Assembly (NCBI RefSeq): GCF_054482525.1
Contig: NZ_CM137006.1
Reading direction: 5' to 3' (one strand)
DNA length: 64,000 bases
Shown one piece after another: positions 11,901-17,900 of this stretch; position 1 is the first letter of the stretch, and each line of letters opens with the position of its first letter. Made by a program: the position numbers.

Positions 11901-14900
11901 TTGCAGCTTGCCTGGCTTTATCTTATTCCGGATGTTTTATGGTAGATACAGAATACAATTAATTAAACTTATTTAAAGATTTTATAAATACCATATTGGA
12001 GTTGACCGACAGATACCTACTAACAAGAGCAATCACCACCACCCCATGAGGTGGTTTAGGAATACAATCAATAAACAACATCCATGCCCGGCGACGTACA
12101 TACCTGTTTGCTATGATATCTGTTACGCTACGCTTGCTAATTTACTGAAACTCAGCGTCTGTCGACGGAGATTCGTCCGGGCCCTGATACAACAAGGGCA
12201 AGAAAACCACCCGAAATACAGATATTCTTATAAAAATGGATCATATTTCCATGTGCAAGTTCAGCTGGCATCGTCCAGAATGCGTGTCCAAGAAATGAAG
12301 CAAGCACGGTATACAGGCACAGAATAATGCTCACTGGCCGGGTGAAAAAACCAAAAACAATCATTAATGCTCCAACGATTTCGACAAGGACCACTATTGC
12401 TGCAGTAATCGCCGGAAATATAAGCCCAAGAGAGGCCATTTTATCGATAGTGCCAGTGAATGATAGCAGCTTGGGAACGCCGGATATCATATAAAGGCAT
12501 GCCAGCATCAGACGGGCAAGGAGCAACAATGCCGACGTGTAATTTCCCATATTAAAATACCTGATTTTATCCACTATCAATGCTCAGTCTCCTTGTTTCT
12601 GATAAAGCCCTGAGCCAAATCCTTAAGTGTACGAGCACCACTCAGTAACATTGCCGTCCTCAGTTCCGTCTTCAGGTGCTCAATGACACCGGCAACGCCC
12701 CCGACACCACCTGCTGCGATGCCATAAAGAACAGGACGTCCGACCGCAACAGCCGTTGCCCCAAGAGAGATAGCCCTTACAACATCAATCCCCCTGCGAA
12801 TACCGCTGTCAAAAATGACCGGAACTTTGTGCCCGACTCTTGCAGCAACTTCCTGCAACTGGCTGATGGCAGAAGGAACACCATCAATCTGGCGACCACC
12901 ATGATTAGACACCTGGATGGCATCTGCTCCTGCATCAATGGCAACCACTGCATCCTCACCCCTGAGGATGCCCTTGACAATGACCGGCAGCCCGGTGATT
13001 TTTTTTACAAACTCAATATCAGCCGGGGTCAGCTCAACTTTTTGGTTAAAAAAATCACCTTTGCCACCGTAACGGGGGTCATGATTACCGAACGTCGCTC
13101 CTGCAGGGAAAGGCGAGCTCATGCTGAGAAAAGCATCACTTGTCCCGGGACCAAGCGCATCCGCTGTGATAATAATGGCTGAATAGCCTGCCGCTTTTGC
13201 ACGCTCCAGTAAACTTCGGGTCACACCAGCATCCGCGTTAAAATACAGCTGGAACCATTTAGGTCCTTTACTGGCTTTTGCAATATCCTCCAGAGAGCGG
13301 TTGGATGCCCCTGATGATTCATAAAGTGCCCCGGCCTTTTCTGCACCCGCTGCAGCAATCACCTCCCCTTCCGGATGGACGAACATATGCGCGCCCATAG
13401 GTGCTATCAGCAGGGGATGTTCCAGATGATGGCCCAAAAGGTCAGTCCGGATATCAATGCTGTGGGCAGCAACTCCACTGAGTCGGTGAGGTAACAAAGG
13501 ATAATCACTGAATGCCCTGCGGTTCTCATGATACGTCCACTCATCTCCAGCACCATGAGCAATATATGCATACGCGGCTTCCGTCATCACTTCTTTTGCT
13601 GAAGCCTCCAGTCTGTCCAGACTGATGATATGAAGAGACTTGCTGGTCGATGTATCAGCATGTCCGGACGTTTTACTGATGATATGTGTCGTTGAAGATG
13701 AGATATTTTTGGCAAGGGCCGGCGCAGATGACAGTCCTGCGGCAGATATCCCTAAAACGGCATTCTGAATAAAATTACGTCGGGAAAGAGGCATAATAAG
13801 CTCCATATATTTATTATAAGCCAGGTCTCCCTGGCTTATAATAATCATGCCACGCCCTGAAGCGGGTTGGTGTTGAAGGTATAAAGGAAAATTTTCCATT
13901 CACCATTAATTTTACTGAGGACAAAAACTTCACGGTTCAGGTCAATAATGGTTTTCTGCTCTTTAAAGTTCGTTACAACAGAACCCACATGGTGGTGAGT
14001 GCGGACAACCGCGGTATCTCCGTTGATCCAGATAGAGTCAAACGCAAAATCGGTCTCAAACTTTTCACGCTTGAACAGATCATCGTACTGCCCCTGGCGT
14101 TTTTCTGTATTGTCAGCCGTCAACTTATCATTCCACTGGGAATAACTTTCATCAGCAAACAGGCCCAGGATGGTTTTTGTATCCCCGGCATTCAGTGCGT
14201 TCTGATACTTGATTATCGTGTCATACACGTTCTTCTGCTCAGTAGCAATCTTACTGTCTGTGGAGTATTTGAATGTACCGCCGGATTGTTCAGGTGAGCT
14301 TTCCTTCTGTGCTGCCGACGATGAGGCAGCCAGAGCATTAGAGCCGAAAAGAAGGGATGATGCCATGACTGCTGTTGCTATAAAATGTTTCATATATTCT
14401 CCATCAGTTCTTCTGGGGATCTGTGGGCAGCATATAGCGCTCATACTATGCTGCTGTTTCAATATTAGCGGCAGACGTCAGCCTTACCGCACTACTTATT
14501 GGATAAGAATATCAAAAGTGACCGTGAAGTCAATTTTATCACAACACAGAAGGCCACTATTTATGCCAGAAAATATGAATCGTCCTCATCATGCACGAAA
14601 GACTCGTAGTTGCAGCCCGGAAAAAACTGCCAGGACACGACAGCAGATAGCCCGGGCAGCACTTGAGGAGTTCTCTGCACAAGGGTTCGCTCGCGCCAGC
14701 ATCAGCAATATCAGCAAGCGCGCAGGAGTAGCTAAAGGCACGGTATATAACTACTTCCCAACAAAGGAATTATTGTTTGAAGCGGTTCTGAAGGAGTTCA
14801 TTGCTACCGTCCGTACTGAACTGGAATCTTCCCCCCGCCGCAACGGGGAAACCGTAAAAGCCTATCTGTTGAGAGTGATGTTACCTGCCGTCAGGAAAAT

Positions 14901-17900
14901 TGACGACGCATCAACAGGCAGAGCCAGAATAGCCCACCTGGTTATGACAGAAGGGAGCCGGTTCCCGGTAATCGCTCAGGCTTATTTACGGGAAATACAT
15001 CAGCCACTACAGCAAGCCATGACCCAACTGATTCAGGAAGCAGCATCAGCCGGAGAGTTAAAAGCAGAGCAACTGCTCTGCTTCCCCTGTTTATTGCTGG
15101 CTCCAAACTGGTTTGGCATGGTGTATAACGAAGTTCTGAACCCGGCAGCACCGGTCAGTACAGGCGATCTTTTTGAAGCCGGAATTGGTGCTTTTTTCCG
15201 ATAGACACATAACTGTCAGTATTATGACCATGCCGTCAGGAGGAGGTATACCAGTGATACCCTGCCATGACCCGGTAACGTCTCCTGGCTGCCTTAAACC
15301 TGAAAGACCTGGCCCCACCACACTGCCGGTTACGCAGTCAAGATGCAGCAACCCTTGCATAAGGCTGTTTTGTGCAGAGGGCTACCGGAAAGATAATAAC
15401 GTCACAGCCCGTATGCATCAGATAAAACAGTGTATTTTATCTGTCAGCAGTCACTGGAGCGGATTGTGGGGCGAGATTCAGGTGCTGATACTGTAACGAC
15501 TCTGCGCCGCTGCTGCGGTAAAAGCGGCTGCCACCAGGCACGGTTATCAGAGGAGGATGACCGTGTCCGCCCCTGGTGGTGATGAACTCTCCATCACAAT
15601 CAATAATGCCGCCGGGTGGATGAAGCAGACAGGGATGGCAAGTCCCACCATCCCGGATAAAATGGGCCCTGGGCGCTCAGAAGACCTGTGTGTCAGGCAG
15701 GGGTGAGAACGGTGATGTTTTTTGTTGTCTGAAAGTCCAGCTCCAGCATTGTCTGCCAGCCTCAAGACTTCCGCTTTCTGCCCTTTCCGGCATTTTCTTC
15801 CGTTACCATCATTCTGTTAATTCAGAGGCGTAGTAGTAGTAAACGTAATACATATCCGGGAGGATGAAGTCATCTAATCCTGCTCCCCGAATATCATACA
15901 GCCATTCCTGAGTGTGACTGCACCATTTCCAATTACGCAGTCTGTCCTCATCACAAAAATGTTGCAAGCAGTGCGAAGTCACGTTCCGTATTCATGCCCT
16001 CTGCCAGATATTGAACGGGGGAGAAATGTGTAAGCGTCAACAGAGCGCCGTATTGACACTTATTTATCGGTGAAAACTACGTTCCATGGCAGCAGTTCGT
16101 CAACACGGTTGGAGGGCCATTCCGGCAGTACGCTCAGGATATGGCGCAGATACGCTTCTGGATCGATACCGTTCAACCGACAGCTCCCGATTAGTCCGTA
16201 CAGCAGAGCTCCGCGCTCGCCTCCATGATCGTTGCCGAAGAACATGTAGAACATGTAGATGATATGACCTTTATATACTCACTATAGCATTGGTGGGATA
16301 TTCCAGAGGAGGTCATCATGCATTCGGAAAATATTGCGGCTTACGTCGGGCTGGATGTGCATAAAGAAACGTTGGCGGTTGCTATTGCTGCACCTGAACG
16401 GCTTGGCGAAGTTCGTTATTATGGTACGATTAACAACGAAGCCCAGGCTGTACGTCGATTATTTCAGAAATTGCAGGGACTTTACGGAAACATTCTTTCC
16501 TGCTATGAGGCTGGCCCCTGTGGTTTTGGGCTATATCATCAACTCACAGCGATGAATATAAAATGCCAGGTTATTGCCCCTTCCCGCATACCAAAATCAC
16601 CGACAGACAGAATCAAAAATGATCATCGGGACGCAATTTCTCTCGCCAGGTTACTGCGGGCTGGAGAACTTACCCCTGTCTGGATCCCTGACCTGACTCA
16701 TGAAGCTATGCGGGATCTAATCAGAGCCCGTGCAGCAGCTAAACGAGACAGCAGAGTTGCCCGACAGCGAATTCTGAGCATGCTATTGCGAACAGACAAA
16801 CATTATGCAGGAAAGCACTGGACAGGAAAACATCGAACCTGGTTAGCTAATCAATCATTTAGTCAGCCATCTCAACAGATTGCTTTTCAACACTATTGTC
16901 AAAGTCTGGAGCAGATTGAAGATCGCATACTTCAACTCGACCAGGAAATATCTCGCCTGTTACCTGAGTGGTCTCTGTGCAATCTGGTCTGCCAGTTGCA
17001 GGCTCTTAAAGGTGTTGGTCAGCTAATTGCAATAACTCTGGTTGCTGAACTGGGTGATTTTTCGCGATTTTCCAATCCCAAACAGCTCATGGCTTTTCTG
17101 GGACTGGTGCCAGGTGAATATTCCAGTGGAAACAGTATTCGTCCCAGAGGAATAACAAAAGTTGGAAACAGCGAACTGAGACGTCTGCTTTACGAAGCCG
17201 CCTGGTCTTATCGTACACCTGCAAAAGTTGGGGCATGGCTTATATATTACCGACCGGACTCTGTAACACAATATTCCAAAGATATTGCATGGAAAGCTCA
17301 ACAACGATTGTGTTCTCGTTACCGAAGTCTGACAGCAAAAGGGAAAAAATCACAAGTAGCCATTACGGCGGTGGCTCGTGAGTTGACTGGATTTATGTGG
17401 GATATTGCACTTGCTGCCCAATCATCATTCAGTCAGCAGAAGCAAAATTAAACCCTGAAGCAGTCAGACACGGAATGAGTGATCCTCGTAAAAGAATTCA
17501 GGGAAGCCAGAATGCGCTAATACCTGCACGTAGAAAGAGGCCAGCTCACTGCGTAAATCGTCATGGGGCTAAAATCCCCGAATAAGAGTTTGTAAAATCC
17601 AAGATACAGTCTGACTGTTTCAGGTTCTTTAATCCGCGATATAACGAAGCTCCCGGAGCTGCGTAAGGTCTTTTTGGGCTTAATATTTGACAAAGGTCAT
17701 AAGAATTCTTTTTCCCGAGACAGACGGCACGAAGCGCTCTTTCTGCTGTGTTATTGTCCGCCTCCGCCAGACCGTCATCACTGTAATAACAGAGGGCGTC
17801 CCACTGATTCAGGACATAGCTGAACGCTTCGCCCAGTCGGGATTTTTTCGACAACGTGCCATTCTTCTCCACCATCCATTCATGCAGCGACGTCAGTAAC

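Follow-up and report, generated by a model that had tools for sequence, protein, structure and literature searches.

Oxidases of 2-hydroxy acids that depend on flavin mononucleotide (FMN) form a textbook family, FMN_dh, whose members have been studied as cytoplasmic, peroxisomal and inner-face membrane enzymes with a two-arginine clamp. The second arginine clamping the substrate carboxylate is R181 in L-lactate oxidase (LOX) and R164 in glycolate oxidase (GOX), the "loop 4" lid is normally variable in the family, and LldD and (S)-mandelate dehydrogenase (MDH) are bound to the cytoplasmic membrane face via an internal insertion. DoxX-family proteins are known as membrane subunits of quinone-linked dehydrogenases, namely BtdS of hydroxyhydroquinone dehydrogenase and DoxD of thiosulfate:quinone oxidoreductase (PMC10084136), and flavoproteins are established cargo of the twin-arginine translocation (Tat) system (PMC6085387). 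Here we describe a locus in which these elements meet, at positions 12152-15204 of a 64,000-nucleotide stretch of Escherichia coli DNA (NCBI RefSeq assembly GCF_054482525.1, contig NZ_CM137006.1; "the window" means this whole stretch, and all coordinates refer to it). A TetR-family gene on the plus strand diverges from three co-oriented genes on the minus strand, which encode an exported NTF2-like protein, an FMN-dependent enzyme of the alpha-hydroxy-acid-oxidase family with a predicted Tat signal (hereafter the oxidase) and a DoxX-family membrane protein. As judged from sequence, the oxidase belongs to a large clade, so far undescribed, whose members are Tat-exported and have a remodelled substrate-binding site. 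What is new here is this clade with its carboxylate-binding arginine replaced by Ser, Pro, Ala or Gly, the covariation of that position with a lysine of the lid (K252), and the recurring oxidase-DoxX pair.

The oxidase (405 amino acids; 12577..13794, minus strand) matches positions 1-349 of the 350 in the Pfam model FMN_dh (PF01070) with its residues 66-399 (E = 8.1e-109), that is, with a full-length TIM-barrel domain. By sequence, its nearest characterised relatives are LOX of A. viridans and GOX of spinach, to which it is about 38-40% identical over one contiguous stretch (residues 50-398). However, its score against the LOX equivalog TIGR02708 is less than half of the cutoff (308.8 bits; cutoff 645.5), and the models for LldD and MDH match in two stretches and far under their cutoffs (201-217 bits; for LldD, NF033901, 201.4 bits with a cutoff of 550). 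The MftD model gives 194 bits, with a cutoff of 471. By these scores the oxidase is neither a LOX nor an LldD equivalog, nor that of any other curated family. The original prediction, which had compared the enzyme with the LldD type, was right about the family and imprecise in the comparison, as the enzyme is nearer the LOX/GOX group.

The catalytic residues Y184, D212, K274, H298 and R301 are all present and are invariant in the 32 sequences of the clade alignment; we take their equivalents to be Tyr146, Asp174, Lys241, His265 and Arg268 in LOX and Y129, D157, K230, H254 and R257 in GOX. At the same positions, all of 80 loci from the general family keep the H, K, R and D, and 78 keep the Y. 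This control set was a by-product of a scan of genome contigs with the clade alignment and is drawn from among the matches listed; the peptide patterns of that scan were family-generic, and it returned mostly distant FMN_dh genes of 31-45% identity. The substrate-binding side of the pocket differs from that of the family. S219 aligns without a gap to LOX R181 and GOX R164, so that the canonical carboxylate-binding arginine is replaced, and across the 32 clade sequences this position is Ser (22), Pro (9) or Asn (1) and never basic, as against 58 Arg and 7 Lys in the 80 control loci. Position 77, equivalent to Tyr40 of LOX and Tyr24 of GOX, is Tyr in E. coli and Klebsiella, and Phe, Val or Ile in most of the clade.

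In place of the Tyr215 region of LOX, the oxidase has a clade-specific lid, in which N237, G243, G244, G246, Q251 and K252 are invariant in the clade alignment. K252 lies four alignment positions past the site of Tyr215, an active-site residue of LOX. A motif specific to the clade, GPKWFQxYxNxD, occurs in 101 of 120 clade proteins and in none of the 80 control loci, and it was used to retrieve 101 metagenomic stretches. Among 74 non-redundant loci readable at both positions, a non-basic residue at 219 is accompanied by Lys or Arg at 252 in 69 of 69 cases, and Arg219 by Asn, Thr or Met at 252 in 5 of 5. From alignment and covariation we infer that the positive charge has moved from the barrel (219) to the lid (K252). 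Because the clade has lost the conserved carboxylate-binding arginine, a 2-hydroxy acid as substrate is less safe than had been assumed at the outset.

Although LOX and GOX are cytoplasmic or peroxisomal, the oxidase starts with a twin-arginine signal peptide (residues 1-28, MPLSRRNFIQNAVLGISAAGLSSAPALA|KN; 13711..13794, minus strand). Its N-terminus, MPLSRRNFIQ, holds an S-R-R-x-F-I motif and is followed by the h-region NAVLGISAAGLSSAP and a cleavage site ALA|K, just as first described; the h-region is moderately hydrophobic, with a mean hydropathy of 1.26 as compared with 1.56 for the Sec-type signal of the neighbouring NTF2-like protein. R5 and R6 are invariant in all 32 aligned homologues, and a regular expression for an N-terminal RR-x-hydrophobic motif matches 102 of the 120 best database relatives (52-100% identity), the rest visibly having mostly truncated or extended start calls. 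RR-bearing relatives come from Klebsiella, Dryocola, Acidovorax, Halomonas, Sinorhizobium, Paracoccus, Campylobacter, Neisseria, Pasteurellaceae, Pseudomonas and others, and RR is found in all 30 metagenomic relatives whose N-terminus aligns. The clade is found mainly in Proteobacteria and soil metagenomes, the Tat signal is near-universal among its members, and the RR pair, the h-region and an AxA-type site are kept across it down to 43% identity. This conservation in relatives is the decisive evidence on which the signal is judged genuine. A wrongly called start had been named as a possible pitfall; however, a GGAG Shine-Dalgarno sequence lies 6 nt 5' of the ATG at 13794, and the next in-frame Met is residue 70, already within the conserved domain, which together with the invariant RR speaks against a start-site artefact. 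Overall, the oxidase appears to be exported by Tat, presumably as a ready-folded enzyme, to the periplasm.

The Tat-exported flavoproteins validated in Pseudomonas aeruginosa are likewise cofactor-containing oxidoreductases with an S-R-R-x-F-L-type signal, but they are of other types (cholesterol oxidase, dehydrogenase, oxidoreductase SphC) (PMC6085387). The words FMN, lactate, glycolate and hydroxy-acid are absent from the text of that study, so no FMN_dh-family member is evident among its validated substrates, and our literature search found nothing on any Tat-exported FMN_dh enzyme. A second RR-bearing FMN_dh lineage was also seen, which keeps the canonical Arg at position 219 and Tyr at position 77 and lacks K252; its members are loci L009 and L012 (Photorhabdus), L011 and L013, and the metagenomic loci L099, L117, L118, L120 and L144. 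L009 and L011-L013, from Photorhabdus and from Hyphomicrobiaceae/Beijerinckiaceae metagenome-assembled genomes, group with the five R219 loci of the covariation set. This lineage may represent an intermediate or, alternatively, a periplasmic branch of its own.

Sixty-five residues precede the Pfam domain of the oxidase, comprising the 28-residue signal peptide and a linker rich in Ser and Thr (13 of 27 residues between residue 29 and about 55), both of which LOX and GOX lack. The "about 70 extra residues" first reported are therefore roughly right as a count of what precedes the domain, yet the N-terminal excess is only about 37 residues over A. viridans LOX and about 52 over spinach GOX. Compared with the gene in strain UTI89, the oxidase gene of the window has 11 substitutions, 10 of them in codons 15-73 with a single difference elsewhere; the linker segment is the most polymorphic part of the gene, as would be expected for a signal peptide plus linker. 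Seven are synonymous and four non-synonymous, the latter in codons 23-68, in or just after the signal and linker. The differences from UTI89 cluster at 13576-13815, beside a 4-base change in a hairpin described below, and none occurs in the NTF2 and DoxX genes. Such clustering suggests a short patch of recombination or relaxation of the signal/linker region.

The DoxX gene (12152..12550, minus strand; 132 amino acids) starts 26 nt past the oxidase stop codon. Its product is an integral membrane protein with a DoxX domain in residues 8-90 (PF07681; E = 9.4e-19), and the hydropathy plot gives helices at about 5-25, 42-88 (two merged) and 108-123, about four in all. The Pfam DoxD model barely matches it (E = 0.75), and the best NCBIfam similarity, to HvfX proteins of the maturation of ribosomally synthesised and post-translationally modified peptides (RiPPs), is under cutoff at 45 bits. 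A protein search returned only E. coli and Klebsiella-type sequences, its word prefilter restricting the reach into distant taxa. Like BtdS and DoxD, this DoxX is a small four-helix protein of about 130-140 residues encoded beside a soluble redox enzyme; unlike them, its partner would be a Tat-exported FMN_dh enzyme, a pairing that we have not found described, and their interaction is predicted from the genes. In concept, a quinone-linked 2-hydroxy-acid dehydrogenase is modelled most closely by LldD and MDH, which belong to the same family as the oxidase. However, the oxidase has no insertion-type membrane binding and is predicted to be exported, and a link to the membrane would need the separate DoxX.

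Gene neighbourhoods in other lineages show the oxidase to be the constant element and its partners to vary. The pair with DoxX recurs on plasmids: the oxidase was found in 76 plasmid records, 75 of them from Klebsiella, Enterobacter or Escherichia, on conjugative IncF plasmids (73 Klebsiella records). The IncF-plasmid oxidase is 79% identical to that of the window over its full length and 85% over the barrel, and it is directly followed by a 64%-identical DoxX, with no NTF2 or TetR gene and in a context unlike the E. coli island. On the IncFIB/IncFII plasmid NZ_CP041094.1 of K. pneumoniae (35557-50594; locus L092), the pair sits amid metal-homeostasis-type genes, among them those of the zinc metallochaperone GTPase ZigA, a second COG0523-like GTPase, a Fur-family repressor and an iron-type ABC transporter. 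In a sub-clade at 57-63% identity, a divergent LysR gene and a Sec-signal hydrolase of the metallo-beta-lactamase (MBL) fold accompany the oxidase at six independent loci, and at one metagenomic locus of this sub-clade a 58%-identical NTF2 homologue lies directly downstream of the oxidase instead. In a soil sub-clade at 43-51% identity, synteny is conserved in 13-17 loci (including L094, L096, L098, L104 and L106), with a kinase of about 458 residues, which we take from motifs read by eye to be UbiB/ABC1-like, upstream, and a CxxC protein of about 98 residues and a Zn-dependent alcohol dehydrogenase downstream.

In P. aeruginosa (locus L003; GCA_016338555.1, 414-7440), the oxidase orthologue is followed by a TatA_B_E gene, and genes for a glucose-methanol-choline (GMC) oxidoreductase and a vicinal oxygen chelate (VOC) protein, both with RR signals, lie upstream. 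The locus encodes a benzoylformate decarboxylase equivalog (717.9 bits; cutoff 493), which recalls the setting of MDH. As a whole, this operon, which stands upstream of alkaline-protease genes, comprises in addition an aldehyde dehydrogenase, the RR-signal GMC oxidoreductase, the RR-signal VOC/glyoxalase-family protein, the Tat-clade FMN_dh enzyme and a private tatA paralogue, and it may be a partly periplasmic mandelate-like pathway. A glyoxalase route from methylglyoxal to lactate, prompted by the MBL and VOC neighbours, was not adopted, because glyoxalase II yields D-lactate whereas the FMN_dh family acts on L-2-hydroxy acids, and because the best match of the MBL protein is a SoxH-like periplasmic hydrolase, far under cutoff. 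Taken together, the view that the four genes form one unit did not hold: outside E. coli, only oxidase plus DoxX (Klebsiella plasmids) and, in the one metagenomic locus, oxidase plus NTF2 were found side by side. Because neighbourhoods elsewhere differ and NTF2-like relatives stand alone, the four-gene arrangement is regarded as an E. coli-specific assembly, in which oxidase plus DoxX is the only predicted functional pair with independent support.

The NTF2-like protein (YybH/DUF4440/SnoaL-like, 182 amino acids; 13845..14393, minus strand) is called by RefSeq at the UTI89 locus and has a predicted Sec-type signal, MKHFIATAVMASSLLFGSNALA|A, made up of MKH, a hydrophobic core and ALA|A; a signal-like N-terminal segment is found in all 30 aligned relatives, which bears out the signal peptide proposed for it. 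The Pfam models SnoaL_2 and DUF4440 match the E. coli copy weakly and are significant in 22 of the 30 relatives. An AlphaFold2 (AF2) model (pLDDT 84.4) has the alpha+beta cone fold, and Foldseek aligns it to the ketosteroid-isomerase (KSI)-like structures 3d9r and 3hx8 with probability 1.0 and TM-scores, by target, of 0.85-0.89. No function was transferred, because these nearest structures are structural-genomics proteins without known function. Two family-invariant motifs, RTHH(H) in the strand at 131-135 and D151-x-NRE (153-155), suggest a catalytic or metal/ligand-binding site, and the protein probably binds the substrate or product or acts on it as an enzyme. Its closest relative outside E. 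coli, from Neisseria zalophi (79%), is encoded by a solitary gene, and so are the copies in Serratia and Rosenbergiella.

The divergent gene (14563..15204, plus strand) encodes a TetR/AcrR-family regulator of 213 amino acids beginning MPENMNR, with matches to Pfam TetR_N (E = 1.7e-15) and TetR_C_7/C_11; no NCBIfam equivalog is reached, the best being ScbR-like (70.7 bits; cutoff 150). Between it and the NTF2-like gene lies an intergenic region of 169 bp (14394..14562) with a sigma-70-like promoter on the minus strand, a consensus match at 14533..14506 (TTGACT-16-TATTCT with TG), and small palindromes found by eye, namely CAGCATA-N12-TATGCTG at about 14430-14460 and CTTATtggATAAG over the -10 box. 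The divergent arrangement and the promoter-like site suggest control of the operon by TetR. Phylogenetic footprinting of an operator was not possible, because all E. coli copies are about 99% identical.

Between the NTF2-like and oxidase genes lies an inverted repeat of 15 nt, perfect and with a 4-nt loop (13811..13844, minus strand), a likely RNA stem-loop; it begins directly after the NTF2 stop and ends 17 nt before the oxidase ATG. Its predicted fold has an energy of -30.7 kcal/mol (z = -5.1), and none of 200 shuffled sequences is as stable. It is no canonical terminator, because no T-run follows the stem, and an Rfam scan of 11500-16400 found no riboswitch and no known RNA, so that neither leader nor hairpin matches a described family. 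In the UTI89 copy, TATT at 13812-13815, the four outermost bases of the left arm, reads ATAA, every base being exchanged for its complement, and the stem is shorter as a result. The hairpin may set the relative expression or the mRNA stability of the NTF2-like and oxidase cistrons.

All four open reading frames (ORFs) of the cluster agree in position with the RefSeq gene calls of the 99.3%-identical UTI89 locus, where the NTF2-like protein is named a "YybH family" protein and the oxidase an "alpha-hydroxy-acid oxidizing protein"; the original gene assignments, including DoxX and the divergent TetR, are thus confirmed by ORFs, gene calls and domain searches alike. The longest ORFs at the oxidase (440 residues) and at TetR (331 residues) were set aside as over-extensions of these genes.

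The cluster occurs in 354 of 5426 complete E. coli genomes (6.5%), nearly always on the chromosome, and 243 of the 354 carriers hold it intact, with four ORFs at at least 99% identity. In 352 of the 5426 genomes, a probe running from the neighbouring fimbrial operon via DoxX into the 3' end of the oxidase gene matches as one contiguous piece; therefore, the cluster is in effect a fixed neighbour of that operon and is inherited with it. The operon (6620-11576) is of the chaperone-usher type, with four genes for adhesin, usher, chaperone and major subunit, and from its position in UTI89 and the Ucl literature we identify it as that of the Ucl/F17-like fimbriae. Downstream of the cluster follow remnants of the insertion sequences (ISs) IS110, IS66 and IS3, and then cnf1 and hlyCABD, so that both flanks, fimbrial operon and IS remnants, are as first reported. 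The G+C content is 0.31-0.42 in the fimbrial region and higher, at 0.45-0.52, within the cluster. Accordingly, the accessory status proposed from the start is upheld by the frequency and by the position in a cnf1/hly pathogenicity island, a virulence island of uropathogenic E. coli; the cluster is not a core locus but a horizontally acquired accessory operon on a pathogenicity island of extraintestinal pathogenic E. coli (ExPEC), travelling with ucl.

Some carriers hold altered copies. In truncated ones, the first 1020 bases (DoxX and the 3' third of the oxidase gene) abut a two-partner-secretion/filamentous-hemagglutinin gene; NZ_AP026794.1 and NZ_CM125672.1 are examples of decayed clusters, and other genomes have ISEc52 or IS1 in or beside the cluster. 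The island also holds a second periplasm-directed redox module: at about 34742-38443 of the window, by correspondence with UTI89, a molybdopterin-dependent oxidoreductase and a cytochrome b protein form an MsrPQ/YedYZ-like pair, which adjoins a response regulator and a sensor kinase and lies between hlyC and IS remnants.

With moderate confidence, we propose that the locus encodes a Tat-exported periplasmic enzyme of the 2-hydroxy-acid type, part of an accessory operon, that delivers electrons to DoxX and quinone. The most likely function of the oxidase is that of a periplasmic 2-hydroxy-acid-type dehydrogenase with either DoxX/quinone or O2 as acceptor, and its substrate is probably other than plain lactate or glycolate. 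FMN would be loaded in the cytoplasm and the folded holoenzyme exported by Tat, cleaved at ALA|K and left to act in the periplasm on its Ser/Thr-rich tether. There it would oxidise the alpha-hydroxyl of an L-2-hydroxy-acid-type substrate arriving via the outer membrane, with R301 and the lid lysine K252 gripping the carboxylate where the family normally has a pair of arginines. From the reduced flavin, electrons would pass in E. coli and Klebsiella to the adjacent four-helix DoxX and on to the quinone pool, as in the DoxD and BtdS dehydrogenases, and clade members lacking DoxX would probably rely on O2 or other acceptors. Substrate or product may be handled by the exported NTF2-like protein, which could for instance isomerise, hydrolyse or bind it, and the divergent TetR would repress the operon until a ligand appears.

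Several observations weigh against this proposal. Most members of the clade have no DoxX neighbour, and therefore DoxX cannot be the general acceptor. A transcriptome table gives a 2.3-fold decrease of UTI89_C4908 ("hypothetical protein with DoxX domain") in intracellular bacterial communities (PMC4959519), and this line for the DoxX gene is all that was found in the literature on UTI89_C4908-C4911. About 110 of the 354 carriers have a truncated or IS-disrupted copy only: the cluster is decaying in part of the E. coli population, and partial copies together with the down-regulation of DoxX indicate that the module is dispensable in at least some niches. The NTF2-like protein often occurs without an oxidase nearby. 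An inverted-repeat search and inspection by eye of 14394..14562 gave short palindromes and no convincing TetR operator, so that, of the "TetR-controlled" cluster first proposed, the divergent TetR gene stands and the control is argued from that arrangement. Finally, Pfam TAT_signal (PF10518) and the TIGR Tat-signal models do not match the oxidase N-terminus; the Pfam miss is treated as uninformative because the model is insensitive even on control signals, having recognised two of six RR-signal N-termini in the same run, a set that included the N-termini of the classical E. coli controls SufI and TorA. Thus, export and accessory status hold from the earlier interpretation, the "pathway" and the control by TetR are plausible, and the four genes are no conserved unit.

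Since O2 or another acceptor has to serve those clade members that lack DoxX, the main rival is a plain H2O2-forming oxidase. The enzyme would then be a soluble, exported oxidase of L-lactate or a short 2-hydroxy acid, serving scavenging, detoxification or peroxide formation in the periplasm, and DoxX would act separately in quinone/quinol handling or protection. LOX and GOX are the nearest characterised relatives, some sources label homologues "lactate oxidase", and the many clade members without DoxX indicate that the oxidase evidently can work alone. However, a score under half of the LOX cutoff, the replacement of the R181 equivalent and, in most of the clade, of that of Y40, and the retention of the oxidase-DoxX pair in E. 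coli and Klebsiella despite differing contexts make this account possible but doubtful. The loss of the carboxylate-binding Arg and of the Tyr could instead mean that the substrate is neutral or larger, such as a hydroxy-lactone, an ester, an aromatic alpha-hydroxy compound or a peptide-borne group, and that the oxidase, the NTF2-like protein, MBL proteins and DoxX carry out periplasmic tailoring or detoxification. MftD, of the same family, acts on such a non-free-acid substrate; exported partners that differ by lineage (MBL-fold hydrolase, VOC protein, GMC oxidoreductase) and the HvfX-like, below-cutoff match of DoxX would fit. The benzoylformate decarboxylase equivalog and aldehyde dehydrogenase beside the P. 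aeruginosa gene can be read in the same way, but this context itself indicates a mandelate-like alpha-hydroxy acid. In addition, R301 does not vary, nor do the other residues of the acid-oxidising catalytic set, and carboxylate binding could be restored by the covarying K252. Such a substrate is therefore unlikely, and RiPP maturation, suggested by the resemblances of DoxX to HvfX and of the oxidase to MftD, is kept only as a low-probability variant because no precursor-peptide gene is evident.

A reading of another kind denies the cluster any function in E. coli: it would be carried along on the ucl/cnf1 island while truncations and IS insertions erode it, and its gene order would have no functional meaning. 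This agrees with the carriers that retain only DoxX and the 3' third of the oxidase gene or IS-disrupted copies, with the constant adjacency to ucl and with a literature in which no phenotype was found. Yet the 243 genomes with all four ORFs intact, the confinement of the four non-synonymous changes, against seven synonymous ones, to the signal and linker codons, and the maintenance of the oxidase-DoxX pair on conjugative Klebsiella plasmids make it quite improbable. Least credible is a cytoplasmic enzyme whose RR pair is fortuitous or whose true start lies downstream: the silence of the Pfam and TIGR signal models would be expected of it, but the silent test is insensitive, and signal features conserved to 43% identity, the Shine-Dalgarno sequence before the ATG, the absence of an in-frame Met between residues 1 and 70 and the adjacent tatA paralogue in one lineage leave it very little room.

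The proposal of a periplasmic enzyme feeding DoxX and quinone can be taken one step further, to a version that is speculative and that we consider rather unlikely in its full detail. Oxidase and DoxX would form a so far unrecognised two-component periplasmic respiratory dehydrogenase, with the FMN enzyme docked on DoxX as quinone-reducing anchor and fed by a 2-hydroxy acid of the host or microbiota, such as an aromatic lactate or a mandelate-like compound; it would have been co-inherited with Ucl for the gut-reservoir lifestyle of ExPEC, and the clade would hold the carboxylate by its lid lysine. The ucl genes encode a gut-colonisation fimbria, and because the operon is confined in E. coli to ExPEC-type islands beside ucl, a niche factor could lie in the oxidation, in the periplasm, of a metabolite from gut or urine. 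For the FMN_dh family, a Tat-exported clade with a relocated positive charge would widen the picture of both cell biology and structure-function relationships, and it would offer candidate periplasmic oxidases for biosensing or biocatalysis. In addition, the oxidase-DoxX pairing provides a concrete candidate function for the poorly understood DoxX family.

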